Positions 8,023-25,821 are shown, counted from the first letter of the stretch. The stretch is DNA of 31,692 nucleotides from Zymomonas mobilis subsp. mobilis ATCC 10988 (GCF_000175255.2 NC_017181.1:1-31692); one strand, 5' to 3'. The notes: generated by a model from the letters alone, not told the origin. Numbers and translations: made by a program.

Positions 8023-8518
8023 GCCTAAATTTTAGGCTAATCTATATAACTAGACATTAATAAAATCGATAGATTTTGTGATTTTTAGATAAAAGTAGTT
8101 GAATTTTATGATTAATCATCATAAAAAATGATTCGTCGATATTTATTTTCTGAAATGATGTGTGCGGAGCCTGATGTGTTATGGATTTTTTATTGAAAAA
8201 GAATATTAATCTCCCAAATACACAGTTTTTTTTCAGAAAAACACATGATGTGATCAATCTTAATGAATCTAAAGATTCTTAAAATGATTCGTTCATCATA
8301 TTTTCTTATAAAAAATATAAATAGATTCGCAACATCTGTTTTTTTTATAAAAAATAAATCTGCGCTTTTGAGGAAGGTCATTACATCAACTCTTAAAAAT
8401 GGGGGATGTAATTACCGTTTCTTATTGCAAATGACCTTTCTGCGCTCTGCACATGAGCGAAATTCTTTCAAAGTTTCTCTGAACTCTCCTCAATCATCAA
8501 AGCCGAAGTTGTGTCAAA
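8023..8518. promoter_or_regulatory. AT-rich divergent control region with short repeats; candidate oriV and/or promoters
   Basis: About 500 bp without a credible ORF, between the HTH operon and the rep-side genes. Contains the palindrome GCCTAAATTTTAGGC (8023-8037) abutting the first HTH start codon, ATGATTAATCAT (8108-8119), TGATGTG three times (8156, 8172, 8246), and AAAATGATTCGT twice (8125-8136, 8281-8292). Confidence 0.35.
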
Positions 8519-8836
8519 ATGACAATTAAAACAGCCGAAAATATGCCTTCTGTGGTCGATGGCGAGATCAGCAGATTCAAGCAGAAGATCAGCAACGCCC
8601 TATATCTTTATATGGGGCAGATGGAATGCGGTCTTCGCCTGTTGATGGATCGCTTGGAAGGTATTCGCCGAGCGGAAGAAACCCGCTCTTATGCTTTACT
8701 GGAAAATGTCTCAAAAGATGAATTTATAAGATTTAATACTGAAATATTAAGTCTTATTGAGGTGATTAAGCGTTCAGCAACTACGGCCAATGATGGCTTG
8801 GCGGGCTTCATTGAAAATTTTGGCTCGTCCTTATGA
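8519..8836 (+). CDS. Hypothetical protein (105 aa)
   Basis: Intact ORF with normal composition, first gene on the rep-side strand. I recognise no family. Confidence 0.55.
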   Translation: MTIKTAENMPSVVDGEISRFKQKISNALYLYMGQMECGLRLLMDRLEGIRRAEETRSYALLENVSKDEFIRFNTEILSLIEVIKRSATTANDGLAGFIENFGSSL

Positions 8837-8960
8837 CCCATTGTTTTTTCAGCCTTTCCTATTTGGAAAAGACCTGTTCTGTTTCCGTCAGTTCTAACCT
8901 TGGGTTTCTGGCCGATGCCTATTCGGCAATCCCTTATCTTCTCATTGGAGAGACTGTCTT

Positions 8961-9212
8961 ATGAGTTCTATTCATGCGACCGAAGAGCTGACTGAAAAGC
9001 TCCAATCCATTATCCGTCTTGAAGAAGAAAAGGCGCGTTTGGATGGCCAGATTGCCGAAGCCTATCGGGATCTGAAAGGCCAGAAATACGACATCAAGAA
9101 GGCCAAGCTTGCGGTCAGCCGTTCGCGAAAAGGGCATCCTGAAAATTCTATTCGTATTCTGATCAACCAGATCGTCAATGATCGGGCGATGAGCCGGAAG
9201 CTTGTCCCGTGA
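8961..9212 (+). CDS. GapR-like / DUF2312-family small DNA-binding protein
   Basis: 83 aa. KLQSIIRLEEEKARLDGQIAEAYRDLKGQKYDIKKAKLAVSRSRKG matches by eye the coiled-coil core of Caulobacter GapR ([48 protein letters not shown]). GGAGAG lies 9 nt upstream of the ATG. Confidence 0.7.
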   Translation: MSSIHATEELTEKLQSIIRLEEEKARLDGQIAEAYRDLKGQKYDIKKAKLAVSRSRKGHPENSIRILINQIVNDRAMSRKLVP

Positions 9213-9262
9213 TCAGAACCGGCGCAGCCTCTTCCCTTTTATCTATTTCAAATTCAGGCCTG

Positions 9263-9295
9263 CCACAGCGGAGAATCTTCGCTGTGGCTTTTTTG
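9263..9295 (+). terminator. Rho-independent terminator after the GapR-like gene
   Basis: CCACAGCG (9263-9270) pairs with CGCTGTGG (9280-9287) and is extendable by G-U, A-U and G-C to about 11 bp with a 3-nt loop. CTTTTTTG follows (9288-9295). Confidence 0.7.
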
Positions 9296-9318
9296 CGTCC
9301 AAGACTGGAGCCCGCACA

Positions 9319-11094
9319 ATGACCGCCTCTTTTTCCTCATCGTCTCATTTCGTGGCGTCATCTCCTATGTCTTCTTCACTTAATGCCGATCTGTCCTCTT
9401 CTGACTCTGCCTCTTCTGCAACCCTCTCCGCATCCTCTGTTCTTTCTCCAAAGCCCAATCTCGCGCCTGCCCCATTATCCGCTGAGTTGTCTTCTATGTC
9501 GCCTAACCTTGTATCGCCTTTGGAAGTTGCTGACTTATCCTTGCCGATCTCCGCTTCGTCTTCGCTATCCTTGGCTTCTCCATTACGTGCTACCATCTTA
9601 CCAGATTCTTCTACAGCTCCATTACCTTCATCTCCCTCCTCTATGTCTTTTGAAGGTAGCCCTTTTGTGGACAGGTTGGGGCGTTTCAAGCGCGGCACTT
9701 ATCGTTCAATGCTGATGCAGACGGGAATGTCCTACGACCATGCAAAAGACATGGCTGATCTCGCTGCTGAGGAATTTAAAAACGCCAAAAAAAGGGAGCC
9801 TGTCGGTGCGACATATGACCGCCAATCACCTCCCTTGGCCAATAGCGCTAATCCCGAAATTCCGGCCTCAAATACCAATCGTGAGGTTACCGCCCCCGCA
9901 TCAGAAGCATTCGACGAAATCGAATATTTTGACCAGATGGTTTCAAACGGCGTTGATCCTGAAACCGCTGCCGATATTGCCCGTAAAACAGCTATTGCAA
10001 GACGTAGAGATCCTCTCGAAAGAGCCACCCGCAATAAAACACGTCGTCGGACTCCTGATCCTGTCCACCGTGACTCTTATGAGGTGGGCGAGCGCGAGAA
10101 GTCGGTCTGGAAGCCGGTCAATCCGCAAGAGATCGGTGCCTATCTGGAAGCGGTCGATCAATATTCGATCAAAACCAAGGGCTTAAGCGATAAGGCCGTT
10201 CGCCTTTTAAAGATGCTGTTTCGGATGGTCGACTTTAAAACTGGCCGTCTGGAGCCAACCCTCGACACAATATGCGATCGTGTCGGCTATGCCCGTGCGA
10301 CGGTCGTTAAATTACTGCGGCAATTACAGGATTTAGGCTTCATCCGCTGGATACGCCGATCAATCAAGATCAAAGCGGATGGCAAAGGCCCCCGCCGCAA
10401 GCAGACCAGTAACGCCTACGGCTTCTTGTCTCCCAAGGCTTGGCCAGAGTTGGCCAGACAGGTTTTCGAGCGTGTGATGCGCCGGAGGAACGCACCTATT
10501 CCTGACGATATCGACCACGCCCAAGAGGCGGACAAAGCCGAAACCAAGGCTATCGTTGAAAGCTTGCCGCCCGAAGATTTCGTCAAAGCGATATCGGGCG
10601 ATAAAGAGCCAACAGAGTTAACAGATTCGTTAATACAGCTCGCCAAATCTATCGAGCGTGCTGAACAACGGGAACAGGAAGAGCAGGTTAAGAAGGCAGC
10701 ACAGGCTGACCAAGAAGGGGTTAAAACACCTTCCCAAACACCTAAGGAGGATACCTCAAAAAAACCCCTAATCTCGGACAATCAACGCGAGTTCAATTCT
10801 TATACTCTATCCTGTTATACTTATTTATCTAATAGCAACCATACAAAACTAAAAACCAAAGAAGAAAATAAGGACTGCACTGATCCTGCTACCACAGACA
10901 GTGCAGATACTATTTATGATCGAAAAACTGACAACGATCCTTTCCTCTTAACTCTTAAAGCTCGCGGTTATCGTCTCGATCAAATCACAGCTTGCCTAAA
11001 TCACAGAGATAAACGGAAAAAGAACAGATGGATGCCTCTGTCACCGGACGAAACCGCCCGCCTCCTTATACAAACAAGACAGATGAAACCCTGA
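9319..11094 (+). CDS. Plasmid replication initiator-like protein (winged-helix) with Ser/Pro-rich N-terminal extension
   Basis: Start placed at ATG 9319 (GGAG at 9307-9310), downstream of the terminator. The ORF track start at 9202 would read through that terminator. The central segment AVRLLKMLFRMVDFKTGRLEPTLDTICDRVGYARATVVKLLRQLQDLGFIRWIRRS looks like the wHTH of alphaproteobacterial plasmid Rep proteins. The family was not verified by search. Confidence 0.65.
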   Translation: MTASFSSSSHFVASSPMSSSLNADLSSSDSASSATLSASSVLSPKPNLAPAPLSAELSSMSPNLVSPLEVADLSLPISASSSLSLASPLRATILPDSSTAPLPSSPSSMSFEGSPFVDRLGRFKRGTYRSMLMQTGMSYDHAKDMADLAAEEFKNAKKREPVGATYDRQSPPLANSANPEIPASNTNREVTAPASEAFDEIEYFDQMVSNGVDPETAADIARKTAIARRRDPLERATRNKTRRRTPDPVHRDSYEVGEREKSVWKPVNPQEIGAYLEAVDQYSIKTKGLSDKAVRLLKMLFRMVDFKTGRLEPTLDTICDRVGYARATVVKLLRQLQDLGFIRWIRRSIKIKADGKGPRRKQTSNAYGFLSPKAWPELARQVFERVMRRRNAPIPDDIDHAQEADKAETKAIVESLPPEDFVKAISGDKEPTELTDSLIQLAKSIERAEQREQEEQVKKAAQADQEGVKTPSQTPKEDTSKKPLISDNQREFNSYTLSCYTYLSNSNHTKLKTKEENKDCTDPATTDSADTIYDRKTDNDPFLLTLKARGYRLDQITACLNHRDKRKKNRWMPLSPDETARLLIQTRQMKP

Positions 11095-11644
11095 TACCGA
11101 TAGCTATCCTTCTCAAAACATACCACCCGTTAATCTCTCGGCGCTGCTCGCTTCGCTCACAAGCTTGGCGAATAAAAATCCGCCTTTCGGTAGGGCTATC
11201 TAATTCCTAAAAATCCGTATTGTTTCAAAAGAGTTTCTCTAATTATAGTAAGCGGTACCTTGTCTTTCATTTCATAAAATTTTTTCAGAGAAATATCGGA
11301 AAACTAGGGATGCAAGATTGTCATCACTCTTTTTTTTCCGTCAAAGTTTTCCGTTTACTTCTATTTGGCAATTTCGACCAGAATCATTCAATATCAATCA
11401 CTGGCCGAAAATCACCTGTATATTGAGCATCTTCGAATTTCCAACTGGAATGTTGGGATTAGGTAAACGCATCTAGGGGGTAAGCAGAAAGTCGGCTGTT
11501 GGGCAGCATGACCACCCAACCGGACATCCTTGTGAACTACTTTTCTAACGGCTTTACGTAACTGTTCAGTTATTCGGGGCAACTTACGTTGCTCCTAAAA
11601 CCGATATTTGTCATTTCGACAACCAAATAGGCTAATATCAATGA

Positions 11645-14164
11645 TTATTCAGATCGTCCCTTTTTGTAGGACTGAATCGTTTCAATCTCTTTGTTCAGGG
11701 TCTCTCGATCCAAATTAGAAAAGAACTTTACATCCTGATAAATATTTCTTGCACTATCAAAATCGCCTATATTGAGGTAATAATTTGCTTCCAATTGAAG
11801 AAACGGCCTATAGTTTGCTCGTAAATCGAATGTAGATCGGTCCATGACGATTCTGCGAGCAATATTTATTTGCTCGATTGCCCGGGAAAAGTTTCTATCC
11901 TTAAGAAGTATCTTTGCATAGAGTTCTAAAGGCGCAAAAAGAGAAGGAGTTTTCTTGAGAGCCTCCAGCACCAGCCTAAGCGCTTCTCGGTTATCTCCAT
12001 AAAAATATTCTATTTCAGCTAATCTCGTTGCATGGAAAGAGCGTCCTTCCTCCTCATCTAACTGTTGGAGAGAATCGAGAAGCTCCAGAACCTCAGGATC
12101 CCGCTTGCAAAGCTTCTTTTTGTTCCTGATTAGGCAAGAAATAAAAATATCGATAATGAAAGGGTTAGCCTTAGCAGCTTCATACGCCTCGCGTGCGTAA
12201 GATTCTGCTTCCTCCGGAAGGTCAAGACTTAAGCACACAGATGCAAGTTCGCGCGACGTAGCACGATTGGTCTGCGATAGTTTATACGCGGAAATCAGTG
12301 TTTCGCGTGCTTCTGTCAGTTTGCCTTGAAGGCGAAGGTTGAAGCCGTTTAGGAAATGTACGATAGCTTCAGACGCATCGTCATCTGCTAAATTTTTCAG
12401 TTGTGTGATACCGAAATTGAACGTTGATTGATCATTGATGCGAGCGGCAGCTAAGCCTAGGTAACGGCAAGCGGCGATAGCACCGGATCTTGATAGGCGA
12501 CCGTGTCCCTCAATTGCTTCTCGCGCCATTCGTATGGCGTCTTTCCATCGTCGTGCATCGTAGTGTTTTTTAGCAAGCCAAACACGATGCGAAGGCAGTA
12601 TAAAAGCTTCCATAAGCTTCGACGTGGGCTCATCCCTTTCAAGAGTCATCAAGATCGCCGATTCGAGAAGCGTGATAGGTGCTTCGCCATCCTCGATGCG
12701 TAATTCCAAAGATCTTGAAAGGGAACGCATTATTCGAGTCCTTTCCTGACTTTTGAGCTCAGTTCTTGGATCGCGTTCAGACGCAATTCTTAAAGCGGGT
12801 GAAATCGAAATCCTCTCATCTTCAACACGAACGATATTCAGATCGAGCATTTTTTGAACTGATCCACTGATCTCAGAAGAGTCTACTTCGGAGAGAACGT
12901 CAGATAAGGATGTGAAATCAAGCTCTGGAGCAATGGAAAATACAGATAATATTTTTAGATCAAGGCTATTTAAATTAGCTGATCTTAGGTACTCTGAAGT
13001 CTGCTTATGTTTCCATTCGATGAAATCTCGAGGATTACTGAGGAATAGATCAACGGATGTCTCCGACACCAGATCGACCATACGATATATATTGAATGGA
13101 TGCTGATCTGCGATATCGACCAGTTTCTCTAGTTGCCCCGACTTTACCCTCACATCACACTCTTTGAGTAATCCCGTGATCAAACGCTCAGTATCCTCTC
13201 TAGTAAGAGCGGATACGCTTAGGTATGCCAAGTCATCAGCGGCTCTGCGTAGCCGCTTTGGGATCATTCTAGGTGATATAAACACTACAGGAGGATGTGG
13301 CCTATCTACAACTCTATCCAAAATGCTTTCAATCTCGGGTTGAAAAGAACCATCCTCACGAAGGACGCCGCCGCCATCAAATACGTATAAAGTTTCTCGA
13401 TCATGGACAATTTCATTGATCTTATCAGCGATTATCTGCGACTTTCGTTTATTGTCTGCATTTTGAAAGCCTTCGATAAGGTCTTTAAGATCCGGAATTG
13501 ATATACTTGGGTTTAGCGATGATATAATAGCCCTGTAAATATCATCATACCCGTCAAAATTATCAAGTTCAACAGTTGGTGGTATTGCGCCAATCTCTGG
13601 ATATTGGTTCTGGAAAAACTTTTTGGCTACCGTCCTACGACCCGAACCAGAATTTCCTGAGACATACAATGCCTTAATTCGAGGTTTATCTAGGTTGTTT
13701 GCTTGCTTTTCAAGAATCTTTAGCTCTGTTTCACGACCAACAAACGGATGAGATTTTATTCTTTTAGAGTGATTCGAAGATATAAGTTTACCTTCAATCA
13801 ACCTAGCGGTACTTTCGGGGCTGCTTGAGCGACGCACCATATTATAGTGTTTTATGAAGTCTTTAGCACTATTAAAAACGTCTTCGTCCAAACAAATCGT
13901 CAGGACACGACTTATTTTCCCACTCGCAATCAGTTCTCTACTGAAGGCAATTTCAAAATTTACGTATCCAGAATTCAGTGCATCTTTCGATAGGAATAGG
14001 CAGAATAGGTCGCAGCGATTTAGCGCCTTTAAGATTTCGTCGGAGTTCAATCCTCCTTCGTCAAAGGTCTGTGAATCAAATTCGTAATTCCCAGGACGCA
14101 AATTATCTTTAACTGCTTGTACATAGCCTTTATCTTTTGACGAGTGAGATAGAAATGCACGCAT
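11645..14164 (-). CDS. TIR domain / P-loop STAND NTPase / TPR-like repeat protein (bacterial NLR-like, Avs-type architecture)
   Basis: Start at internal Met 14164 (GAGG 6 nt upstream). N-terminal TIR (MRAFLSHSSKDKGYV...LFCLFLSKDALNSGYVNFEIAF, conserved Glu present). P-loop YVSGNSGSGRRTVAKKF and Walker B-like TLYVFDGGG. The C-terminal ~330 aa are helical TPR-like repeats. Confidence 0.85.
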   Translation of the reverse strand: MRAFLSHSSKDKGYVQAVKDNLRPGNYEFDSQTFDEGGLNSDEILKALNRCDLFCLFLSKDALNSGYVNFEIAFSRELIASGKISRVLTICLDEDVFNSAKDFIKHYNMVRRSSSPESTARLIEGKLISSNHSKRIKSHPFVGRETELKILEKQANNLDKPRIKALYVSGNSGSGRRTVAKKFFQNQYPEIGAIPPTVELDNFDGYDDIYRAIISSLNPSISIPDLKDLIEGFQNADNKRKSQIIADKINEIVHDRETLYVFDGGGVLREDGSFQPEIESILDRVVDRPHPPVVFISPRMIPKRLRRAADDLAYLSVSALTREDTERLITGLLKECDVRVKSGQLEKLVDIADQHPFNIYRMVDLVSETSVDLFLSNPRDFIEWKHKQTSEYLRSANLNSLDLKILSVFSIAPELDFTSLSDVLSEVDSSEISGSVQKMLDLNIVRVEDERISISPALRIASERDPRTELKSQERTRIMRSLSRSLELRIEDGEAPITLLESAILMTLERDEPTSKLMEAFILPSHRVWLAKKHYDARRWKDAIRMAREAIEGHGRLSRSGAIAACRYLGLAAARINDQSTFNFGITQLKNLADDDASEAIVHFLNGFNLRLQGKLTEARETLISAYKLSQTNRATSRELASVCLSLDLPEEAESYAREAYEAAKANPFIIDIFISCLIRNKKKLCKRDPEVLELLDSLQQLDEEEGRSFHATRLAEIEYFYGDNREALRLVLEALKKTPSLFAPLELYAKILLKDRNFSRAIEQINIARRIVMDRSTFDLRANYRPFLQLEANYYLNIGDFDSARNIYQDVKFFSNLDRETLNKEIETIQSYKKGRSE

Positions 14165-15204
14165 GTGAACCTCGAAATTAATTTGAGCTATTATTAAAAA
14201 ACAATCTATATAATCCAAGTCGAATCGCAAGCTGCTTACTGAATCCTGGCGTTAGACTGTGAGTTATTTCTCCCTCACACCCCTCGAAGTTGTAATTGTC
14301 TATCGGTGCTGAACTTCTGACAAACAATGTTCGCGATGTGGAAAGCTACTTGGGCGACTGCTGCCTATCTTATTCCACATTCCTGAACAGGCAGGTGGAT
14401 CTGGGGTGGAAAGTAATCTGTTTTCTTTAGGCAAATACCACTTGAAAGCGGAGGTCTCCGCTAATGCAGGAGCGGTTCAATATTCCTTTGTCAACAGAAA
14501 CTGGTCAATCTGCAGAAACGGGAAGAATGGCTGAGTAGGCAGTTTGAGGTCCAAAACCAGGGTCGTCAGAGGTGGATTTATGAATGGAAGGAAAGACACC
14601 GACCTGTGAAAGAACAGGCTCATCGCGACATGTCCCTGTTTTGATTTCTGTCCGACAGCAAGCCGTTTTCTGCCGAGCATATAGAATTTAAGAAACTGGC
14701 ATCACAAATGTATCTTAAGGACAACTTGTTAGGGGTAATCCAGAAGCTTAGAAAGAACGAAAGACATAGTCAATTTGGAATGCCATGAGTTTACCAATAA
14801 GGCTGTTCTTAAAAGAATCCGTAGATAGAAGACCACCGATGCTGGACCAGTGATACTGCTAGACTGCGCGTGGAGTTTCTTGATCAGCATCTGACGTCTG
14901 GACAGATACAACTTGATGTTAAAAAGCCAATGAATTTTTCATGGAAAAGTTAAAATTTGTCTTAAAGGATCGCAAGAAAAAACCATTTTTCCAATCTATG
15001 CCGTTGACATATCCAGAGATCGAATGATTGAAAATCTAATATCCAATCCCGGGTTATTCGATCCCTCGAACTAATACAACACCATTAACCCCGGGATTAA
15101 AGATGTAAGAATTCTTGAACAATATACTATAAGAAAAATGTGGGAAATATTACCTATTTTCTATATTTTTCATTACCTTTTTATTATTTTATAATATACT
15201 TTAC

Positions 15205-17919
15205 TTAATTACCACCTATATTCAAGCTCTGATCAAACACTACAGCAATCCCTGGCATCGAACGATTGGCTGTCAGGCCAACGTCAAATATTTGTCGCAG
15301 TTCATAACGAAGCTTAAATTGACGACCCGATTTTTCTAAGAGATCAAATAAAATATTGTATGATCCATACTTCAAAAGCTTTTGAAAATTTTCGTCTATC
15401 ACCGTATTAAACACTAAATCCAAATCGGTTTCATTTTCAGGCTCGCTTATAGCCTCCTCTCGACTATGAGATGCCATGATGCAAGTCCCTGCAGACATCT
15501 CATCAAAGTAAAATCGCAAATCAAGGTCATTAATGGTTGCCCAACGATATTCAGCTCTCCGAGATCCACCATGGAGTATAGGGAGAAAAATATCATCACG
15601 CTGGAATAGTATTGCCTTGAGAGTTGATAAATCAATCGTTGATCCGTCAAAGTATCCTATAGGCAGCGTAAGGGGGTCACCCCCAGCCCAGTACACAGCT
15701 CGAGCAAGTTCCACCTTTTCTATAACTGAAAGTGCTCCGTTTATTCCGACTTGAGCCTGATTTGTAGCCCATTGAGCTAAAGACTTTGGCGATATGGAAA
15801 GTTGAGCTGCTCCTCGAGTCGCTATAGCCGCTTCACCTTCTATAATACCAATATAAGAGGGGACTTGGCTATTGCTGGAGTGCCCAGCTAATAATTTTGT
15901 CCTTACTGGATAGGTTAGACCTCCGACGCGGGCAAAAGACATCATCTCCGATCGTAAATGTCGTGAGTTCAACTGTATTGCTGCACGGCCAACTAAGCGA
16001 CCATCATCATTTTCAATAGGTGTAACAGCTTCTGAATATAGGGTCACATAGTCTGTCTCCGAATGATTTTGATCATTCGTCAAATCTTTTATGAATTCCT
16101 CAGAAGAACGCGAACTCCAATTAGCAGCGTGAGTAAAAGAACGACTGGCAACTTTGTCTACAAATTCAATTTCAACTGCACTAGATGCAGTAAGCCAGCG
16201 GAGATAACTGAATACGTCTGAATGGAATATCCCCGATAAAAAATTTGTCACTTTAGGATGTTTTAAAGTATTATTCTGGGGCAGAAAACCATTAATAGCA
16301 ACTTGATCTGTTACAGCAATCGAAATTCGGGTTGTATATATATCGCTCTGCTCAGATTCTGCCGCTTTTCTCAATATCGGCCGTCTTGTTAGACCGACAA
16401 ATTCTAGCGCCAATCCATTCCCAATGCCGTCCTTGTACCGTCGGGTAACTACTGTAACCTCGTCTCCAAGTAGAAATACCGAGAAAAATCCAATCCCGAA
16501 TTTTCCCGAAATATTTACAGATGCCACACTTATCTCTGGGTTCTCTTGAGCAACATCTTCCGACTTCCAGCCAGACCTGCCAAAATCCAAAAGCCGTCGA
16601 GTAAGTACGCGCTCTGACATACCGATTCCATTGTCTTCAACAATAAGTCTGAGTTGTCCCGTTTCACTTCGCTCCAGCGTGCACCGAATACGCGGAATAA
16701 AACCCTCCCGACCGATACTAGCTCTTAACAAAGTTGCATCTATAGCATTTTGAAGCAACTCCCGGAGCGGCGCATGATAACCATTACCATACAAATTTCG
16801 ACCGCCAAGTGTTTGCGCAAGACTAATAGGATCAGTAACTCGCACTTCGGCATCCACTGGCTCCCAACCGTCGCAATGAACATATTTCGCAAACAGTTTT
16901 GGTCTTTGTGTACCTTCTACTTTCTTTGCAAAAAATTCTTCTGTATCAGATTCTTTAAGTAAAGATGCTGCAGATTGCAGCTCATCTGAAATCATCCGGC
17001 AAGTATCGAAGCAGAGCCACCAAGCGTCGGCTTCAGATCTGCCAAAATCTCTTCCAGAATTGTATATAAGAGCTTGATCACCTCGAGACGGGATACCCAG
17101 TCTATTCTGAAACCCCCAGTGTAACGCTGAAACTCCTTTTGGAGAAGAGAGAATATAGTCCATAAGTGGAGCTCGACGATTATCAATATGTGCAGCATCG
17201 GCACAACGCAACAGTATAGCAATCTTAAGTTCGTTTAATTCCCATTCTGCAGGCAGACTTGGTGGTGGTGCGCGACGTGTCAAGAACTCATGGGCAAGGC
17301 GGTCTACATCCCAATGGTGGCTCTGCGCTATCCGCCCAATTATTTGACCATAATAATCGCGAAGCTCGGTATCTTCAATAATATAGATTACACTCGCAAT
17401 ATTAGGTCTACTCCATTCACGTTCAACCATCTTTACGGCCTGTTTTGCATGCAGCCCTCGGACCGTGGAAAATAAGGCTATGCGCTCGAATTGCCTTCTT
17501 TGATCTTTTGAAAGAGAATTTTTGTCTATTCGTGGCAAGGCTGTCATTTGCGCCATAGCACGTTGCCATTCTGCTGTCTTTTTTAGCCCGTCTAGACCAT
17601 CTTCATACGCAACCACAGCAAGGGCACTGTCATGGAATAAAACGCTGCATCCGAATATGAAGGCTTCTAACGGGTTCAAAGGATAATTATCACCCGCTAT
17701 GATATCCGCAAGTTGCCATAACGCGTCTAAATGACTTTCGTCATGAATTGTGAGGCCTTGACAATCAATATGAGCCTGCCGAACTATCGGCTTGATTCGG
17801 TCATGCGCCGTCTCAAAAGTACTCCTTAACGTCGCTAAAGCACTTTCTTCTCGGGGATTGCCCCCCGTCATACCAATCGTTCGTTTCCACAAGGTCGTTT
17901 CGTCGTATCTAATCGCCAT
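15205..17919 (-). CDS. HD-type phosphohydrolase-like domain fused to a GHKL (Hsp90/MORC/histidine-kinase-like) ATPase plus an unassigned C-terminal region
   Basis: About 904 aa. ATG at 17919 with GGAGA 7 nt upstream; the ORF track uses TTG at 17922. His/Asp motifs in the N-terminal ~250 aa: IHDESH, LFHDSA, GLHAKQ, SHHWD, CADAAHID. Bergerat-fold motifs: N-box LRELLQNAIDAT, G1 IVEDNGIGMS, G2 GKFGIGFFSVF. I recognise no family for residues ~500-905. Confidence 0.85.
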   Translation of the reverse strand: MAIRYDETTLWKRTIGMTGGNPREESALATLRSTFETAHDRIKPIVRQAHIDCQGLTIHDESHLDALWQLADIIAGDNYPLNPLEAFIFGCSVLFHDSALAVVAYEDGLDGLKKTAEWQRAMAQMTALPRIDKNSLSKDQRRQFERIALFSTVRGLHAKQAVKMVEREWSRPNIASVIYIIEDTELRDYYGQIIGRIAQSHHWDVDRLAHEFLTRRAPPPSLPAEWELNELKIAILLRCADAAHIDNRRAPLMDYILSSPKGVSALHWGFQNRLGIPSRGDQALIYNSGRDFGRSEADAWWLCFDTCRMISDELQSAASLLKESDTEEFFAKKVEGTQRPKLFAKYVHCDGWEPVDAEVRVTDPISLAQTLGGRNLYGNGYHAPLRELLQNAIDATLLRASIGREGFIPRIRCTLERSETGQLRLIVEDNGIGMSERVLTRRLLDFGRSGWKSEDVAQENPEISVASVNISGKFGIGFFSVFLLGDEVTVVTRRYKDGIGNGLALEFVGLTRRPILRKAAESEQSDIYTTRISIAVTDQVAINGFLPQNNTLKHPKVTNFLSGIFHSDVFSYLRWLTASSAVEIEFVDKVASRSFTHAANWSSRSSEEFIKDLTNDQNHSETDYVTLYSEAVTPIENDDGRLVGRAAIQLNSRHLRSEMMSFARVGGLTYPVRTKLLAGHSSNSQVPSYIGIIEGEAAIATRGAAQLSISPKSLAQWATNQAQVGINGALSVIEKVELARAVYWAGGDPLTLPIGYFDGSTIDLSTLKAILFQRDDIFLPILHGGSRRAEYRWATINDLDLRFYFDEMSAGTCIMASHSREEAISEPENETDLDLVFNTVIDENFQKLLKYGSYNILFDLLEKSGRQFKLRYELRQIFDVGLTANRSMPGIAVVFDQSLNIGGN

Positions 17920-18116
17920 CAATCTGTCTCCAAATTATAGCCTTTTAGCATGGAATCTCGTCCGAACGCAGCTTCAAAAACGATAGTTTTGCGCTAGCCA
18001 GATTGAATAATAAGGTCGGCAACGATATCTGTATTCTTAGGAATCAATGAGATAATTAGTTGAAATTCAACTCCAAGCTATCAAGCAGCCAGTCGTCAGT
18101 TTATCATCTCCAACAT

Positions 18117-18154
18117 AAAAAAATTGGCATATACTGCTCTTCTTTATGCCAATT
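18117..18154 (-). terminator. Terminator-like hairpin reading on the minus strand, upstream of the HD-GHKL gene
   Basis: AATTGGCATA (18122-18131) pairs with TATGCCAATT (18145-18154), with a 13-nt loop. On the minus strand the hairpin is followed by a T-run (A7 at 18117-23 on the plus strand, whose last two bases also belong to the stem). The stem is AT-rich, so strength is uncertain. Confidence 0.4.
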
Positions 18155-18243
18155 GTGAATTCTATAACGCAATGTTTCAAAACTCATAACCTGAGGCTAC
18201 GCCACTCGCATTCTACGAAAAATGATTTTGCCCTGTTTGGAGT

Positions 18244-18394
18244 GGTAATCCCACCCAAGCCCTCGGCGTAGAGGTGTCGCTTTTTATGCATTTTCTGATC
18301 TTATGCAGGACAGCCATAAATAACCTAGAATACGGCCTTAAGATAGCTTTATTCAATGAAATACGGCCGAAAATCTCTTATGCATATTTATGCA
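18244..18394. repeat. Non-coding module A: conserved leader (GGTAATCCCACCCAAGCCCTCGGCG...TGTCGCTTTTT) followed by TTATGCA x4 and (A)ATACGGCC x2
   Basis: TTATGCA at 18284, 18301, 18378 and 18388. ATACGGCC at 18330 and 18361. The first ~67 bp align at roughly 78% identity by hand with module B. Confidence 0.6.
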
Positions 18395-18955
18395 GCCTTG
18401 TCTATTGGTAGCTTCCCTTGTTTTCCTGTTAAAATACCCCTTGTTTCTCAAAAGCTATGTCCTCTTTTTTATCCTCGGGATTGGGCTTCAGTTAGCTATC
18501 GGCAGAGGAGTTAAAAAAGAGAGAGTGTGAGAAAAATAAGACCGGTATAATTATAGCAATCAGCTAGTAAGAAGGCTCAGGGAAATGCAATGGAATATAC
18601 AGGCTGGATAGAAGTTTGGATCTTTAACTGTTTGGTAAATCAGTCCTTCATTACAGAAGAAGATTCTCCATCATCCATTTTTAGTCAAGGCTTATGGACA
18701 GAAGATTGTAAGCCCAAAAAGCATTAGGATGTCTTCTCAGAGTAAAATATTTCCTCTTCTTGGTCCACTGGTCATATACCTTCTTTCTTGCTGTAGAGGG
18801 CTCTCTGGGCAGATAGCTTTTAGCTTTTGGAAAGGTATATCTCTTAACTATAGCCGATGAAATGGATCAATTCTTTTTAAAGAAGCAGTATCAAAACCCA
18901 TCAGTTGATATAAAAATATCAAGAGAGGTGTTTTTTTGTTATACTCTTAGCGTCC

Positions 18956-19130
18956 GGTTAACCCACCCTAGCCCCCGCGCTATACATGTCGCTTTTCTAC
19001 GCAATTTCTGATTCAACGCAAAATAAAAAATATCGCGTAAAATAGCCTTTAAAACACAAATTTTTTTACAAAAGTGCCTATTTTTACTGTTCGCAAATAA
19101 ACGCATGCTCAACGCATTTTGTAAAACGTA
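18956..19130. repeat. Non-coding module B: homolog of module A leader (GGTTAACCCACCCTAGCCCCCGCGC...TGTCGCTTTTC) followed by [T/A]ACGCA repeats
   Basis: TACGCA 18998-19003; AACGCA 19015-19020, 19100-19105 and 19111-19116; AAACGTA about 19125. TTTCTGAT is shared with module A. Lies immediately downstream of the decayed parG-like gene. Confidence 0.6.
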
Positions 19131-19165
19131 AAAAAGATGCCAAAAAATGCTTATTTTCTCAAAAC

Positions 19166-19397
19166 CTAGACGAACTTTTCGGCTAAAATTTCATGGACTA
19201 GAGTGATCATCATTTCCCTTCATCCATGGCCTGAAGTTTCAGCTTTCTATGAATGTCTGCAGGTATAGACAAAAACGATTTGTCTTTTCTGCGTTATCAT
19301 CAGCGTTCCACTTTGCGACCCACTAATCAACATCAGATGGCTTTTTAACGGCACGCGACGGGCACGTTAAGCTGATTGAAGATGCTGTTTTGGTCAT
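19166..19397 (-). pseudogene. Decayed ParG/RHH-like partition gene (multiple frameshifts/stops)
   Basis: The minus-strand ATG at 19397 overlaps the parA-fragment stop and gives MTKTASSISLTCPSRAVKKPSDVD*. Compare MSNNAFSIDLSRLKKQPK of the intact gene at 1377. Other frames give ...KSFLSIPADIHRKLKLQAMDEGK* and MMITLVHEILAEKFV*, together an RHH pattern broken by frameshifts. Confidence 0.45.
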
Positions 19398-19560
19398 AAT
19401 GAAGCCCCTAACTCAAGTAATTCATTTTTAATGGCTGTGATCTTATCGGCCACAAAATTACGTTTATCTGGATAATCGAATACCGACAGGCCATCCAATG
19501 CGCTCTCGGCAAAGCGGACACGCTGTGATAGCTGACTATTTAATAGAGGTAGCTGATGAC
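19394..19560 (-). pseudogene. 3' fragment of a second parA gene, truncated at the IS boundary
   Basis: The last ~55 codons of ORF 19394-19720 read LPLLNSQLSQRVRFAESALDGLSVFDYPDKRNFVADKITAIKNELLELG, a typical ParA C-terminus. Upstream of 19560 the ORF runs into IS sequence, and no N-terminal ParA part exists beyond the IS. Confidence 0.6.
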
Positions 19561-20177
19561 TAGGTTTTGTTGACAAAGGGTATAATTTAAGATTTTTAGA
19601 GATAAATTGAGAACAAGTTTTGTAGGGCAGACAGGATGCAAGGAGATCTGACGGACGCGGAATGGCAAATAATAGAGGGTCTTCTTCCAAGCGAACGAGG
19701 CCGTTGCGCACGTCCCGCAAAAAGCAATCGGTTATTTCTTAATGGTATGCTTTATGTACTTCGAACAGGCTGCCCGTGGCGAGATATGCATGAACGTTAT
19801 GGGAAATGGAATTCGGTCTATGTTCGATTTCGTAGGTAGGCGGAACAGGGTGTCTGGGATGCTCTTTTTGAAACCATAGTTGAGGGTGACTGAATAGATA
19901 GGACCATCATGTGCGCTTACAATCAAGCGGCTGGCGCAAAAGGGAGAATCTCAAGGAAGGCTTTGGTCGAAGCCGCGGTGGCTTTACGAGCAAGATCCAC
20001 GCCCGTTCCGATGGTCAGGGCTGGCCTCTAACTTTCGAACTAACAGGCAGTGAGGTCTCTATTATTCTGATGCCAATAGCTTGATAGAGATTCCTGCCGT
20101 AGCACTACGACGTTTTCTCACTTTTTTATCTCGCGGCTATAAAATGGTGGCTATCTTCTATGTGTTAACAGAACCTA
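19561..20177 (+). mobile_element. Defective IS5-family insertion sequence (IS427/IS1031-like) with nonsense, frameshift and internal deletion
   Basis: Terminal inverted repeats TAGGTTTTGTTGACAAA (19561-) and TGTGTTAACAGAACCTA (-20177), matching 14/17. Transposase N-terminus MQGDLTDAEWQIIEGLLPSERGR...NGMLYVLRTGCPWRDMHERYGKWNSVYVRFRR, then TAG where Trp is expected (19837-19839). A frameshifted GFGRSRGGFTSKIHARSDGQGWPLTFELTG follows. The DDE core is missing and a C-terminal FSLFYLAAIKWWL remnant remains. At 617 bp it is shorter than the roughly 0.8-0.9 kb I would expect for this IS group. Confidence 0.75.
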
Positions 20178-21769: not shown

Positions 21770-24700
21770 TCAATTTTTATGGCTGTTTGAATCGATTTTA
21801 AAATCGGGACGCCATCGATAAAAAAGATCAAGACCTGTTTGCAAAGCCGCATAGGGCTGATCTGTTATATCGGATGGATTACGAGGCAAAATCTTTGAAG
21901 CGGCTTTCATCTTTTGTTGTTTCTCTTGTAATATTCCAAGAAAATCGGAGGTCGTTTTCTGGTCATATTGAGTGGCGACGGATTCTAGCCCCAAAGCGAT
22001 AGGAAAGCCTTCTTCCATTGCCACCGCATGGGGCGATGACGGTGCCAGAAAACGGGCATGATGCCATGATCGTCCTATTTCACGTCCAAGCGTAAATGTT
22101 AGATAAGCCCGAGCTTGCGGTCGTCTCATATCATGTAACCATCCTCGCCGTTCGGGGATATAGAGGAGTGAACCACTTGATCGCGCTTCGGCCAAGGCCT
22201 CCTCATCGATAAATTGGGGTGTTTCCACAATATTGAGTGCTTGAAAAGGGGGCGACCCAAAGCGACGCACTAGATGGTCAAGCACTAAGAGGGTTTCTTT
22301 ACTGATGGTATCCAAAGCCTGCCCGTGATTTTTACGGAATGTAAAGGTTATGGGGATAGGGGCTGATTTTGGATGTCGCCAAAGAAGCTGTTTCTTTTCT
22401 ACCCCTTTTACGGCGATGATCAGCGGATCAAGGGGGGCGTTATCAGCTGTGGCTTCAAGGATATGTTGTCCATCATGAATTTGCTCTGTCGAGGATATCC
22501 CGCTAGTATAGAGACGGAAGTCGGATGGTGCAGAGATTTTTATGTCGATCACGACACGTCCAGCCGAATCATTTAAAGCCGAGCGAGACGGATCATCAAC
22601 TGGCAACGGCCTTGATGGTAAATGATAGCGAAAGCGTTCATTTGTCTCTGCAAGCTCGCGTTTGCGATCATAATTCAAGCGCGGGAAGGCATTATTGTCC
22701 AATATGACAACATCCCGACCTATCGGCCATGCAAAAGCACCATCAACAAAACCCTGCCATCTCGAATGAAGCATAAAATCGATGGTTGTTTTTTCTCCAG
22801 CGGCCAAGGGATGATCGAACCGATAGATTTGAACCCGTTCCTGATGATCGTCATGGTGGAGAGAAAGACCCAGCGATTTATTGGCCAGTTTTAGGCGGCT
22901 ATTTTCAGGGATATTAACGAGAATAGCCGTGATCGGCTTTGAATCGGGATTGGAAACAGTCCATTTTCCTTGGGTCGTCAATAATCCTTTCGCGGGATTG
23001 ACTGAAGTTGCCAGTGCCATTTCTGTGATGAGTGGTCGCGGTTGGTTCCGCCATTGGCCATAAAGCTGTTCATATAGCGCTTGATCACGATAGTCTTCTT
23101 GCAAGCTCTGGGTATCGTTCACTTCATATAAGTCGCGATATATCGTGGCACCGGCTGTCAGCGTTACTATAAGCATGGCTGCTATGCTGGTGAGCGCTGG
23201 CCACTTTATGGTGATGTGACAGATCCGAATATAGAGGGGCTTTTGTTCGCCTCGAAGGTCTATATGGGAGGCCAAAACAACGATGATGCCGACTATTCCA
23301 AGCCACCAAGCTGCATAAAGCAGATGCCGCCATGTGTCGGCATCAAGCACTGAAAAAGCCGAAAAAATCATCGGCTGTGGCACGCCAAAAAGTGCTAGCC
23401 TTTCATTGATCGTGCCGGTTTCGTGCATGGCGATCCCGCCCCATAAAAGGATCAGGGGTAGTCCTTGCGCGAACAGCTTCTTATGCGTCAGAAGGTCAAG
23501 CGCCAGCGTTAAGATGCCGAATTCGATCAGCGGGAGAAAAAGATGTAAAAAAATCGAACGGATAAAATGCTGTGGTTCAGTTTCCAAGAAACCATTCGAA
23601 AATTGGAAAATGATAATCGACAGGCTTGGTAAGAGAGAGAATAATAGCGCCATATAAATAATAGCGATGAGCCGTCCGCCGATCAGGACGTTTCCGGGGA
23701 CGCTTGTCGCCGATATCAGGGACAACATTTTGCTCTCTCTGTCGCGTGCGGCAATTTCGCCCGCAAAATAAATCATCGCCATGGCGAGTATCATGTAAAG
23801 CGAAGGCTGGACGACGGTAAATAAATATTGGGCATAAGGGCGCATCTGGTTTTCGGGTAGCGCGTAGGCTGATTCAGCGCCCCATGCACTGGTGAGACCG
23901 AGCACAACCAAAGCGGCGACAATGACCCGAAAAACAGGTAATCGGATTGTGGCTGACCAGTGAATAGAGGCCAGATGGAGAAGAAGGCCAAGTCGGCTAT
24001 CGCTTTTGATATACAATAGCTGTCTCGGGGTATGTTTCCGGTGAGAAGATGACGGCGATGATTTCCGTCCTTTATTGAGCATATCTTCCAATCTGAAGCT
24101 GGCAGCTCCCCATATCAAAAAAATTGCCCCTATGGTGATCCAAATTATTCTGTTGCTGATAAGGATCATACTGGGACTAAGAAAATGGGCTGTTCTTTCA
24201 GGCATAGACCAAAATAAGGCCTGCGCATCTAGCGTTTGTTTCCCTATTGGGTCGATCAATTCAACCCATGTGTGATGGCCTGCTGAGGCTTTGAAACTGA
24301 CAAAGAATAAGGTGAATACCGCCATACTTAAAAGCGCAAAGCCGTAGCAAAATAGTAAGCGGCCTGAACGCGCTGCCAAGGCAAAATGAATACTGCCATA
24401 GATAAAACAGGCGGGTAGAACCCATATGATGGTCGCCCAGCCAATATGATTCCAGAGGGTGAAATGGCCAAACATTTGCCCGCCACCGAGAGCATGGGCG
24501 ATCCATGGTATGACAATAATCGTGACAGGAACGCTCATCATAACCATGACGGTTATGACCATGCCTGCCATATATTTTCCCCAGAAATAGCCCTCTTTGG
24601 AAATGGGTGCCGTATAGACAAGGGGTGCCATTTTGGTTCTGATATCCCGCAGCAGGGGAGCGGCCATCAACAAAGGCCCCAGAACCGCCACCCAAAAAGC

Positions 24701-24886
24701 CGAATACATGCCCCAATAATAAATGACAAAGCTGCCGTTATGCGGCACGCCGCCGCCGCCAAGATCGGATGTATCAGCACCAAGAAGTGCCGAGGCGGTA
24801 TAGCAGACCAATACAACCATCAGTAGCCATGGCACCCATGAACGCAAGCGTCGGCTTAATTCGTCTGAAAAAAGGCTCCAAAACAT
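21770..24886 (-). CDS. ABC-2-type polytopic permease fused to an M1-aminopeptidase-like domain lacking HExxH
   Basis: 1038 aa. The first ~560 aa are a run of hydrophobic helices. The C-terminal ~480 aa are soluble, with an M1-like segment FGSPPFQALNIVETPQF...TFTLGREIGRSWHH...AMEEGFPIALG (compare HExxHxW...NEGFA). The start overlaps the stop of the upstream ATPase gene (TGATG). Confidence 0.78.
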   Translation of the reverse strand: MFWSLFSDELSRRLRSWVPWLLMVVLVCYTASALLGADTSDLGGGGVPHNGSFVIYYWGMYSAFWVAVLGPLLMAAPLLRDIRTKMAPLVYTAPISKEGYFWGKYMAGMVITVMVMMSVPVTIIVIPWIAHALGGGQMFGHFTLWNHIGWATIIWVLPACFIYGSIHFALAARSGRLLFCYGFALLSMAVFTLFFVSFKASAGHHTWVELIDPIGKQTLDAQALFWSMPERTAHFLSPSMILISNRIIWITIGAIFLIWGAASFRLEDMLNKGRKSSPSSSHRKHTPRQLLYIKSDSRLGLLLHLASIHWSATIRLPVFRVIVAALVVLGLTSAWGAESAYALPENQMRPYAQYLFTVVQPSLYMILAMAMIYFAGEIAARDRESKMLSLISATSVPGNVLIGGRLIAIIYMALLFSLLPSLSIIIFQFSNGFLETEPQHFIRSIFLHLFLPLIEFGILTLALDLLTHKKLFAQGLPLILLWGGIAMHETGTINERLALFGVPQPMIFSAFSVLDADTWRHLLYAAWWLGIVGIIVVLASHIDLRGEQKPLYIRICHITIKWPALTSIAAMLIVTLTAGATIYRDLYEVNDTQSLQEDYRDQALYEQLYGQWRNQPRPLITEMALATSVNPAKGLLTTQGKWTVSNPDSKPITAILVNIPENSRLKLANKSLGLSLHHDDHQERVQIYRFDHPLAAGEKTTIDFMLHSRWQGFVDGAFAWPIGRDVVILDNNAFPRLNYDRKRELAETNERFRYHLPSRPLPVDDPSRSALNDSAGRVVIDIKISAPSDFRLYTSGISSTEQIHDGQHILEATADNAPLDPLIIAVKGVEKKQLLWRHPKSAPIPITFTFRKNHGQALDTISKETLLVLDHLVRRFGSPPFQALNIVETPQFIDEEALAEARSSGSLLYIPERRGWLHDMRRPQARAYLTFTLGREIGRSWHHARFLAPSSPHAVAMEEGFPIALGLESVATQYDQKTTSDFLGILQEKQQKMKAASKILPRNPSDITDQPYAALQTGLDLFYRWRPDFKIDSNSHKN

Positions 24887-25821
24887 CAGTTTCTCCTGTC
24901 ATTCTTTTGCAGAACGGCGAGAAAATAAGCGTCCTCTAAATCGGGTGTTTTGGGTGTAAAACCTTCTGCTGGTTGGGTTTCCGACTGAATGACAACCAGA
25001 TGTAATCCCCGATGTATTCTACGGAAAACAAGCTGTCCGCTTTTGGAAATTTGGTCAGCCCTTTCCCGATCGACCAAGGCTTGCCAAAGCTGCCCCGATA
25101 ATGACGCGGTTAATTTCTCGGGGTCCCCTTCCGCCATAATCCGACCTTGGTTGATAACCGCAATCCGGCGACAAAGATTGCTAACATCTTCGATAATATG
25201 GGTTGAAAGGATGATGGCGGTATTCTCGCCAATATTGGCAAGAATCTGATTAAATCTGTTCCTTTCTGCGGGGTCTAGGCCTGCTGTTGGTTCATCCACT
25301 ATCAGTAATTTGGGATGGCCGAGCAGGGCTTGCGCGACGCCGAAACGTTGACGCATCCCGCCCGAATAATCACTAACCGGTCTGTTTTTAGCCGCATCGA
25401 GATTGACCATTTCGAGTAATGTTCCGATCTGATGCTCTCTTTCAACGGCGTTCGAGATGCCTTTGAGACGGGCAAAATAATGAAGCAGCTCTTCTGCACT
25501 GGCACCCGGATATGTCCCGAAATCCTGAGGGAGATATCCCAGTTTTGCGCGCATCTCTCGAGGGGACGCGAGCGCATCTATTTCTCCCAGATGGATGCTG
25601 CCCCTATCAGGGCGTTGCAAGGTCGCGATAATACTCATTAAAGTCGATTTGCCGGCACCATTAGGCCCCAGCAGTCCGAAAATACCTGAAGGCACATTGA
25701 GTGAAACATTGTTCAATGCATGAACGGGATTTTTGCCGGGGTAGATTTTACTTACCCCAGACAATCTAAGCATTGATTTGTCTTTTTCTAGTTGAGGCAA
25801 TATAATCCTCCAATGTTTCAA
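24886..25821 (-). CDS. ABC transporter ATP-binding protein (ABC-2/DrrA-like)
   Basis: 311 aa. Walker A GPNGAGKST, signature YSGGMRQR, Walker B LLIVDEPTAGLD, and an H-loop STH. Confidence 0.93.
   Translation of the reverse strand: MKHWRIILPQLEKDKSMLRLSGVSKIYPGKNPVHALNNVSLNVPSGIFGLLGPNGAGKSTLMSIIATLQRPDRGSIHLGEIDALASPREMRAKLGYLPQDFGTYPGASAEELLHYFARLKGISNAVEREHQIGTLLEMVNLDAAKNRPVSDYSGGMRQRFGVAQALLGHPKLLIVDEPTAGLDPAERNRFNQILANIGENTAIILSTHIIEDVSNLCRRIAVINQGRIMAEGDPEKLTASLSGQLWQALVDRERADQISKSGQLVFRRIHRGLHLVVIQSETQPAEGFTPKTPDLEDAYFLAVLQKNDRRN

Follow-up and report, generated by a model that had tools for sequence, protein, structure and literature searches.

Gene and domain organisation of the fusion protein

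The stretch of DNA studied here (hereafter the window) comprises 31,692 nucleotides (nt) of a plasmid of Zymomonas mobilis subsp. mobilis ATCC 10988 (NC_017181.1, positions 1-31692). On its minus strand lies a gene (15205..17919) whose product combines an N-terminal phosphohydrolase domain of the HD-CE family with an Hsp90-like ATPase. We consider it probable that this HD-CE-Hsp90 protein has a role in conflict or defence. The longest open reading frame (ORF) of the region runs over 905 codons from a TTG (15205..17922), and a preliminary description of the locus, made from the sequence, had taken it as a protein of 905 amino acids (aa). The ORF is real and intact, but the likely start codon is the ATG one codon downstream, at 17919, with a GGAG ribosome-binding site 8 nt 5' of it (17928..17931, minus strand). 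This start gives a protein of 904 aa, with the stop codon at 15205-15207. Residues are numbered from this ATG and coordinates refer to the whole window, all parts of the gene being on the minus strand; the residues previously listed as H97/D98, N392 and D430 are present, but their numbers were one too high. The 904-aa product is 100% identical to an NCBI entry named 'HD domain-containing protein [Zymomonas mobilis]', and homologues of 890-910 aa cover 99% of the protein, from which we conclude that the gene is intact. No Rfam family was matched in the search for RNA elements, and promoter and terminator scans gave background levels only.

Conservation was read from an alignment of 83 homologues with 31-64% identity to the query. 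An AlphaFold2 model of the whole protein built on this alignment reached a mean predicted local distance difference test score (pLDDT) of 89.1 and a predicted template-modelling (TM) score of 0.84. The N-terminal segment (aa 1-54; 17758..17919) contains a long helix (aa 22-52) ahead of the HD core, modelled with a pLDDT >90, and its mean pairwise identity is 0.37. It is followed by the HD-CE phosphohydrolase domain, the predicted effector (aa 55-315; 16975..17757), which matches Pfam family PF24391 with E 1.3e-49 and 169.8 bits (gathering cut-off 27), the match spanning profile positions 3-262 of 263. PF24391 was likewise matched by each of the 22 N-terminal segments of homologues that were scanned, while other Pfam HD families, including PF01966, were unmatched by the query and by the 22 family members. 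The domain carries the motifs H59-x3-H63-x-D65, H96-D97, H157, H201, D241 and D246, and each of these histidines and aspartates is invariant in the 83 homologues. The whole-length profile match together with the intact H...HD...D metal-binding residues places the domain in the HD-CE family. The HD motifs that had been picked out before (IHDESH, LFHDSA, SHHWD and CADAAHID) are all present in the translation.

A separate model of aa 1-362 showed an all-helical HD-CE domain (pLDDT 87.6). When this model was compared with the Protein Data Bank (PDB) by Foldseek, no match better than E 0.13 was found. The weak matches that recurred were catalytic domains of class-I cyclic-nucleotide phosphodiesterases (PDEs), with E >= 0.13 and TM-scores of 0.25-0.35. 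The arrangement H59-x3-H63 ... H96-D97 ... D241/D246 likewise recalls the H-x3-H ... HD ... D layout of class-I PDEs. Since no Foldseek match of the HD model fell below E 0.1, we treat this resemblance as a lead only. Structures of dGTPase, SAMHD1 and Cas3 were all absent from the top 50 Foldseek matches of the HD model. The sole match in a PDB profile search for a solved relative of HD-CE was a carbonic anhydrase, which we discarded as spurious.

Between the two catalytic domains lies a conserved connector (aa 316-372; 16804..16974) with invariant W352, P354 and G372, which stops just before the GHKL core. Its mean pairwise identity of 0.50 is on par with that of the catalytic domains, and it may be a strap that couples closure of the ATPase to the HD domain. 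The ATPase domain itself is of the Hsp90-type GHKL (Bergerat) class (aa 373-545; 16285..16803) and contains the N box, the G1 motif (D429-G-x-G433), the G2 motif (G472-K-F-G-I-G-F-F) and T530. Pfam PF13589 (HATPase_c_3) matched aa 385-497 with E 3e-9, and partial matches to NCBIfam HSP90/HtpG models were obtained at E 2.5e-16 and 4e-14, with restriction-enzyme, sacsin and topoisomerase VI-B models ranking below these HSP90-family/HtpG models. Searching the PDB with a profile of the 83 homologues gave N domains of the Hsp90 family (TRAP1, Grp94, HtpG and Hsp82) with E values of 1e-17 to 1e-13. In an hhalign comparison with Escherichia coli HtpG, residues 22-144 of HtpG were aligned with 97.6% probability and 30% identity, and only aa 374-495 of the query took part. 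The protein is not a canonical HtpG: it scored 52 bits against the cut-off of 371 for NF003555 and 59 against 455 for PRK14083, and these matches are confined to the ATP-binding core.

The GHKL residues of the N box (E387, N391, D394), G1 (D429, G431, G433) and G2 (G472, G475, G477) are invariant in the 83 homologues, as is T530, which presumably represents motif IV. The Bergerat motifs that had been noticed before are therefore real and of Hsp90 type. The catalytic residues of both domains are invariant down to 31% identity, which indicates that both enzymatic centres are maintained by selection. Judged by its motifs, the protein is thus a fusion of an HD hydrolase and an Hsp90-like Bergerat ATPase that are both apparently active.

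For the C-terminal half, all searches by sequence (a Pfam scan at E <= 1, the PDB profile search and the hhalign comparison with HtpG) end at approximately aa 500. A different result was obtained with the predicted fold. When the whole AlphaFold2 model was searched against the PDB, the top matches were only chaperones of the Hsp90 family (N-terminal plus middle domains of Hsp90, TRAP1 and Hsc82), with 460-490 aligned columns and E ~1e-10, and the TM-score was 0.53 when normalised to the 477-residue N-terminal-plus-middle fragment of TRAP1 (4ivg). Because the GHKL domain spans only ~170 residues, such alignments must traverse a middle domain of the Hsp90 type. We therefore describe aa 569-850 (15370..16215) as an alpha/beta region that is Hsp90 middle-domain-like by predicted fold. 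It is a candidate surface for binding of a client or trigger. Within this region G644-R645-A-A is nearly invariant, and R645 is possibly the catalytic-loop arginine. The loop that precedes it (aa 546-568; 16216..16284), at the position of the Hsp90 charged linker, is hypervariable (mean pairwise identity 0.08) and modelled with low confidence (pLDDT <50 at aa 557-563). The protein ends in a variable alpha/beta tail (aa 851-904; 15208..15369; secondary structure from the model, identity 0.19). These 54 residues are all that follows the middle-like region, and the model contains no counterpart of the ~130-aa C-terminal dimerisation domain of Hsp90.

The statement in the preliminary description that the last ~400 aa match nothing thus holds by sequence but not by fold, and its scheme of HD + GHKL + X is to be replaced by HD-CE + Hsp90 (N-terminal and middle domains) + a short variable tail. 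Mean pairwise identity is 0.50 in HD-CE and 0.53 in GHKL, but falls to 0.29 in one half of the middle-like region and to 0.23 in the other. For many full-length representatives (850-900 aa) the alignment is limited to positions ~3-771 of the 889 in the profile, leaving the last ~110 unaligned. By analogy, conserved catalytic modules combined with a fast-diverging distal region look like the pattern of single-chain immune sensors.

Distribution and genomic neighbourhoods of the family

To survey the family, 1.84 billion cluster representatives (clustered at 50% identity) were scanned exhaustively with HMMER, which returned ~1,485 matches at E <= 1e-30. The best 150 of these ~1,485 are nearly all 840-930 aa long and have the same end-to-end architecture, and among the best 120-150 matches listed the Hsp90 module always occurs in the HD-CE architecture. 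In a pattern scan with one genome per species, relatives were found in at least 208 of 185,579 species. They are spread over Alpha-, Beta- and Gammaproteobacteria, Verrucomicrobiota, Acidobacteriota, Firmicutes, Actinomycetota, Chloroflexota and Planctomycetota, and also occur in a metagenome-assembled genome of Saccharimonadales and in one Methanophagales archaeon. Such a thin, phylum-crossing distribution is expected of horizontally mobile accessory or defence genes. The closest relatives, with 64% identity, come from metagenomes. Among 50,697 phage genomes none contained a homologue; in IMG/VR, homologues were present on four contigs. The single match in PLSDB belongs to a record of 11.8 Mb, and no other Zymomonas plasmid of that database has the gene.

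When ~1,270 ORFs from the neighbourhoods of 72 loci were clustered all against all, no general conserved partner gene emerged. The commonest neighbours were integrases (13 of the 72 loci) and serine recombinases (8 loci). For 60 loci, the products of the first gene of 150 aa or more on either side (116 proteins) were compared with the 110 most distal proteins of the same loci, located 7-10 kb away, using PADLOC models at E <= 1e-8. The near set matched 222 models and the far set 19, which shows an enrichment of uncertain size, since redundant PADLOC models and not proteins are counted. Matches in the near set include LmuB-like, mad3, AbiL, PDC-S06, AriA and restriction-modification methyltransferases. 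In individual loci, an island with integrase, HTH_17 and DUF3987 carries the 64%-identical homologue as its terminal cargo, the surroundings of the Hyphomicrobium copy include NaeI/Vsr restriction-modification genes as well as a resolvase and an integrase, and the Methylobacterium copy adjoins a resolvase and an IS21 element. The family is thus patchily spread and associated with mobile elements and defence islands, though some loci have no defence neighbours. That homologues should co-localise with known defence genes, as would be expected of the candidate conflict gene put forward in the preliminary description, is borne out to this extent.

These data also bear on the idea that the protein is a housekeeping or stress-response paralogue of Hsp90, linking folding status to nucleotide or alarmone metabolism and having no role in conflict. 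The ATPase half is indeed closest to true chaperones, and ordinary genes surround some copies (DegP/MCP in Bradyrhizobium, GGDEF/lig in Sphingobium). However, only ~0.1% of species representatives, dispersed among unrelated phyla, have the gene, which lies on integrative islands and, in Zymomonas, on a plasmid cargo segment that is missing from the sister plasmid, and its neighbours are rich in defence genes. Moreover, the 52 bits obtained with the HtpG equivalog fall far short of the required 371, and neither RelA/SpoT-type nor other Pfam HD families are matched. We consider a housekeeping function highly improbable.

Although no partner is general, ~13 of the 72 loci have an ABC/SMC-type ATPase of 765-880 aa directly upstream on the same strand, and in most of them the gap between the ATPase gene and the fusion gene is -58 to +85 nt. 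Seven ATPase-bearing loci form one tight clade, with fusion proteins that are 75-88% identical across Alpha-, Beta- and Gammaproteobacteria, which looks like a clade that has recently spread. In these loci (L043, L048, L053, L063, L068, L070 and L042) an ATPase of ~830 aa, SMC/LmuB-like, lies directly upstream of the fusion gene and a small ORF precedes the ATPase, which suggests a three-gene variant. The ATPases of this clade match the LmuB and mad3 models only partially. Full-length PDC-S06 (AAA_13-type) ATPases, with E values down to 1e-192, adjoin the fusion gene on the same strand in four other loci (L036, 7305-9599; L072, 7324-9957; L076, 7230-9872; L075, 12751-15105), and a complete AbiLi and AbiLii pair is located directly upstream in three Firmicutes loci (L033, L060 and L084, ~7960-9930). 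Adjacency to PDC-S06 and AbiL reflects either a recurrent functional pairing or the clustering of genes in defence islands.

It could therefore be argued that the protein is a subunit of a multi-gene SMC/ABC-ATPase system, LmuB-like or PDC-S06-like, and that the copy in the window is an orphan, which may be non-functional. In favour of this view are the upstream ATPases themselves, with their partial LmuB/mad3 or full-length PDC-S06 matches, and the retention of the operon by one clade across several bacterial classes. Most loci, however, have no such partner, and the partner-bearing copies belong mainly to one or two clades far from that of the Zymomonas protein, whose members are all without an ATPase partner. 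No SMC/ABC-type ATPase ORF flanks the gene in the window. In addition, PDC-S06 is listed as a single-gene candidate, so that its adjacency may simply reflect the defence island, and the window protein is of full length and has kept every catalytic residue, which argues against decay. An orphaned subunit is hence an improbable reading. The window gene is best read as a one-gene system because its clade lacks the ATPase partner, while in some lineages the family may plug into ABC-ATPase systems.

The cargo segment of the Zymomonas plasmid

The HD-CE-Hsp90 gene resides on a strain-specific segment of 6.8 kb (11189..17986), as revealed by blastn comparison with plasmid pZZM404 of Z. mobilis ZM4 (NC_013787.1). 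Homology between the two plasmids, which share a backbone of 88-98% identity, ends at window position 11188 and restarts at 17987. In between, pZZM404 carries 5.5 kb of other, mostly hypothetical and unrelated genes (7714-13227, corresponding to L095 7070-12583). The segment 11189-17986 is thus a variable cargo slot of Zymomonas plasmids. The alternative cargo of pZZM404 gave no convincing PADLOC match, which does not mark the slot as a defence hot spot.

The segment contains a second candidate immune gene, a TIR-NLR gene at 11645-14230 (minus strand), which matches the PADLOC TIR-NLR model over its full length (E 4.4e-44) and is annotated by NCBI as 839 aa from an internal ATG. Its product consists of a TIR domain, a P-loop NTPase and TPRs, and the gene lies on the same strand as the HD-CE-Hsp90 gene, 974 bp downstream of it. 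Upstream of the HD-CE-Hsp90 gene, on its other side, are a short ORF (19394-19720, minus strand) with a ParA-like C-terminus, which from its translation looks like a ParA C-terminal remnant, and a frameshifted transposase remnant in two frames (19636-20084, plus strand) that looks IS5-like. The full-length TIR-NLR neighbour, the insertion sequence (IS) remnant and the decayed ParA-like ORF agree with the defence-island context claimed for the gene at the outset.

The proximity of the TIR-NLR gene raises the possibility that HD-CE acts as a phosphodiesterase not in an effector role but on signalling nucleotides, either cyclic oligonucleotides or ADP-ribose isomers made by TIR domains, and tunes or ends another pathway such as that of the adjacent TIR-NLR. 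Besides the shared strand and cargo segment, the weak Foldseek matches to cyclic-nucleotide PDEs would fit this idea. Yet no TIR-NLR homologue was found among the ~1,270 neighbour ORFs of the 72 other loci, the closest homologues (64% identity) are without a TIR gene, and there is no conserved cyclase or CD-NTase partner. TIR-NLR-type proteins are, furthermore, usually self-contained, and an ATP-driven switch of 900 aa would be an odd regulator for a simple ring nuclease. We therefore regard a signalling phosphodiesterase as quite unlikely, and the coupling to TIR-derived nucleotides that had been suggested in the preliminary description is not supported, with TIR-NLR homologues near 0 of the 72 other loci.

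Several further observations concern the surroundings of the gene. It is flanked by ~1 kb (14231-15204) and ~1.5 kb (17923-19393) without a convincing ORF or Rfam match, and from 17987 onwards the upstream flank is 87-92% conserved in other Zymomonas plasmids, which likewise have no annotation there. The only notable repeat, a 23-nt inverted pair with 3 mismatches (14485-14507, plus strand, and 19557-19579, minus strand; 0 expected in 100 shuffles), encloses the HD-CE-Hsp90 gene together with 1.6 kb of backbone, its right arm being located just before the IS5-like remnant. These sequences may be IS ends, in which case the left arm would be a solo end lying between the HD-CE-Hsp90 and TIR-NLR genes. 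Elsewhere on the plasmid backbone, Pfam identified a type II toxin-antitoxin module (RelB antitoxin and YafQ-ParE toxin, 5480-6023, minus strand). The window also has transport genes (21770-31554 and 3007-5313, minus strand), namely one cluster with an ABC-2-type permease of 1038 aa, three ABC ATPase/exporter genes and a TonB-dependent receptor, and a second TonB-dependent receptor outside the cluster; this transport cargo is unrelated to the HD-CE-Hsp90 gene.

Proposed function and comparison with known systems

With a rough probability of 0.55, we read the HD-CE-Hsp90 protein as a single-polypeptide abortive-infection immune protein, in which an Hsp90-like switch controls an HD-CE effector that hydrolyses nucleotides, the substrate being the weakest link. 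The defence function, the substrate, the trigger and the mechanism of coupling are all parts of this model that we infer. In the model, aa 373-904 would form an Hsp90-like, ATP-driven clamp that serves as both sensor and switch. The fast-evolving surfaces of the middle region and tail would detect infection through a cue that is most likely a phage protein, bound in the manner of a chaperone client, and binding of this cue would permit or stabilise ATP-dependent closure and N-terminal dimerisation of the ATPase. Closure of Hsp90 involves the swap of a strand and a helix between protomers. The connector (aa 316-372), which would occupy the place of this swapped strand and helix, would pass the movement on to HD-CE, and the metal-dependent phosphohydrolase would thereby be switched on or paired. 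Active HD-CE would then hydrolyse free nucleotides, so that the pool for phage replication collapses and the infected cell is arrested.

Several points weigh against this model. The nucleotide substrate has no structural support, as the HD-CE model has no significant PDB match and shows no resemblance to dGTPase/SAMHD1 dNTPases (deoxynucleoside triphosphatases); nucleic acid or signalling nucleotides may be the substrate instead. Dimeric action of the clamp is assumed for a protein that is without the C-terminal dimerisation domain of Hsp90. The near and far PADLOC counts, being counts of redundant families instead of proteins, leave the size of the enrichment uncertain, and the Bradyrhizobium (DegP/MCP) and Sphingobium (GGDEF/lig) copies stand alone among ordinary genes with no defence neighbour. 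With an ABC/SMC-type ATPase directly upstream in ~13 of 72 loci, the term 'single protein' may not apply throughout the family. Finally, we found no published experiment on any HD-CE-Hsp90 protein in the literature.

A variant with the same defence architecture has to be weighed, in which HD-CE is a nuclease resembling the HD domains of Cas3 or Cas10 and, when released by the Hsp90-like switch, degrades phage and/or host DNA or RNA in place of free nucleotides. HD domains do include bona fide nucleases, Cas3 among them, and nothing in the HD-CE model fixes the substrate. The Hsp90-like GHKL domain is common to the BbrUII/HgiDII restriction enzyme family (E 8e-6), and the only validated one-protein defence system with a GHKL ATPase and an effector that we found, VcSduA, uses a nuclease (PMC12137116). 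Against a nuclease, Pfam found no nucleic-acid-binding, helicase or clamp-for-DNA domain in the protein. The sole recurring structural resemblance, weak as it is, is to cyclic-nucleotide PDEs, which are small-molecule enzymes, and the H-x3-H ... HD ... D layout, as a reading of the motifs, resembles class-I PDEs too. HD-CE has also reportedly been classed as nucleotide-targeting by Nicastro and colleagues. A nuclease effector therefore appears unlikely, and the nucleotide-hydrolysing effector under an Hsp90-like switch remains the reading that we prefer.

A bolder form of this preferred reading sees the protein as a pattern-recognition receptor with an Hsp90 fold, which captures a phage 'client' on its fast-evolving middle and tail surface and on ATP-driven clamp closure activates a so far uncharacterised clade of HD hydrolase, different in structure from the known dNTPases, that destroys nucleotides, with one clade of the family wired to SMC/ABC ATPases. 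We offer this only tentatively. If true, it would provide the first experimentally tractable case in which a chaperone fold has been exapted for immune switching, together with new HD enzymology. More generally, if the prediction holds, the switch modules of prokaryotic innate immunity (STAND NTPases, GTPases and SMC/ABC ATPases) would be extended by Hsp90-like ATPases, and the nucleotide-depleting effectors would come to include HD-CE beside Calcineurin-CE. The protein is a compact test case, one polypeptide with two easily mutated active sites, and it bears on the question how a chaperone-type clamp recognises infection. For annotation, a specific and checkable architecture can take the place of 'HD domain-containing protein'. 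Because Zymomonas is an industrial ethanologen, a cargo segment with two candidate immune genes may also affect phage resistance and plasmid or transformation behaviour in comparison with ZM4.

PADLOC v2 (PADLOC-DB v2.0.0) has no model for the HD-CE-Hsp90 protein. Its best match, to Tiamat (TmtA; E 0.016, 10.9 bits), covers only profile positions 47-137 of 1655, which represent the shared GHKL core, and was rejected. The earlier designation of the gene as a candidate conflict gene is supported by the invariant catalytic centres, the mobile and patchy spread and the defence-rich neighbourhoods. The word 'undescribed' does not hold, since the N-terminal domain belongs to a curated Pfam family, HD-CE, of the 'conflict effector' kind.

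In comparison with the chaperones Hsp90, HtpG and TRAP1, the protein shares the ATP-binding motifs, including G-x-F-G-[IV]-G-F-[FY]-S, the fold of the N-terminal and middle domains and the flexible linker. It differs in having no C-terminal dimerisation domain and an additional N-terminal HD-CE extension of 370 aa, and in being patchy and mobile where the chaperones are universal and vertically inherited. The best viral structural matches to the ATPase and middle regions in BFVD were phage RIIA proteins (480-570 columns, E 1e-9 to 1e-7); giant-virus Hsp90 and phage 'HSP90 family' proteins were matched as well. A clamp fold, at the level of GHKL plus transducer only, is thus common to a phage counter-defence protein and a host protein, whereas RIIA ('protector from prophage-induced early lysis') has no HD-CE domain and represents phage-encoded counter-defence or lysis-inhibition proteins.

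With STAND/NLR sensors, such as Avs, bNACHT and the adjacent TIR-NLR, the protein has in common that one polypeptide combines an effector at the N-terminus, an NTPase switch in the centre and a fast-evolving sensor region at the C-terminus. Its switch, however, is of the GHKL/Hsp90 type and not a P-loop STAND NTPase, and sensor domains of the repeat type (TPR, LRR or WD40) are lacking. HD enzymes that deplete deoxynucleoside triphosphates (dNTPs) in defence (dGTPase/dNTPase, Clover CloA and human SAMHD1) starve the virus of nucleotides (PMC12265719). They resemble the HD-CE-Hsp90 protein as metal-dependent hydrolases of the HD superfamily and in the proposed outcome of nucleotide starvation. 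Beyond the superfamily no relationship of HD-CE to them is detectable, and its regulation would lie with a fused Hsp90-like ATPase in place of allosteric nucleotides or an NTase partner. Membership of the dGTPase/SAMHD1 clade was rejected, as PF01966 was not matched, no PDB sequence match was obtained and none of these enzymes was among the top 50 Foldseek matches.

Two experimentally studied systems provide closer precedents for parts of the model. VcSduA, the Shedu protein of Vibrio cholerae, protects against phage by means of a GHKL ATPase and a clamp-like middle domain fused to a nuclease, and point mutants of its ATPase glutamate and of its effector were made to test the requirement for each activity (PMC12137116). 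It thus shares with the HD-CE-Hsp90 protein the layout of a one-protein anti-phage system with a GHKL ATPase and a clamp-like middle domain fused to an effector. In VcSduA the effector is a C-terminal DUF4263 nuclease of the PD-(D/E)xK type, in contrast to the N-terminal HD-CE here, so that the domain order is reversed; DUF4263 gave no Pfam or PADLOC match in the HD-CE-Hsp90 protein. For Calcineurin-CE, depletion of dNTPs in anti-phage defence when a danger signal is sensed has been shown experimentally in a 2026 preprint (PMC12871103), which credits the CE (conflict effector) families to a 2023 study by Nicastro, Burroughs, Iyer and Aravind (Nucleic Acids Res 51:11479). The PUA-Calcineurin-CE-HAD system of the preprint is built on a sister conflict effector family and is a precedent for the predicted logic. 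It has a calcineurin-like fold, a PUA sensor that binds m6-dAMP and two genes, compared with the HD domain and Hsp90 module of the protein described here.

The likeness to effector-plus-HSP90 systems of the kind proposed by Nicastro and colleagues lies in the combination of PF24391 with an Hsp90 ATPase/middle module, mostly stand-alone, mobile and in defence-rich surroundings. The window protein has the predicted HD-CE effector and an Hsp90-clade GHKL domain with N box, G1 and G2, joined to a middle domain recognised by predicted fold. In the abstract of that 2023 work, Calcineurin-CE, HD-CE and PRTase-CE are said to be predicted nucleotide-degrading immune effectors, and HSP90- and HSP70-related modules are reportedly proposed as analogues of STAND and GTPase modules that are coupled to effectors. 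The architecture found here fits this description, with no essential difference from it. The HD-CE-Hsp90 protein of Zymomonas is hence a plasmid-borne, alphaproteobacterial member of a computationally predicted kind.

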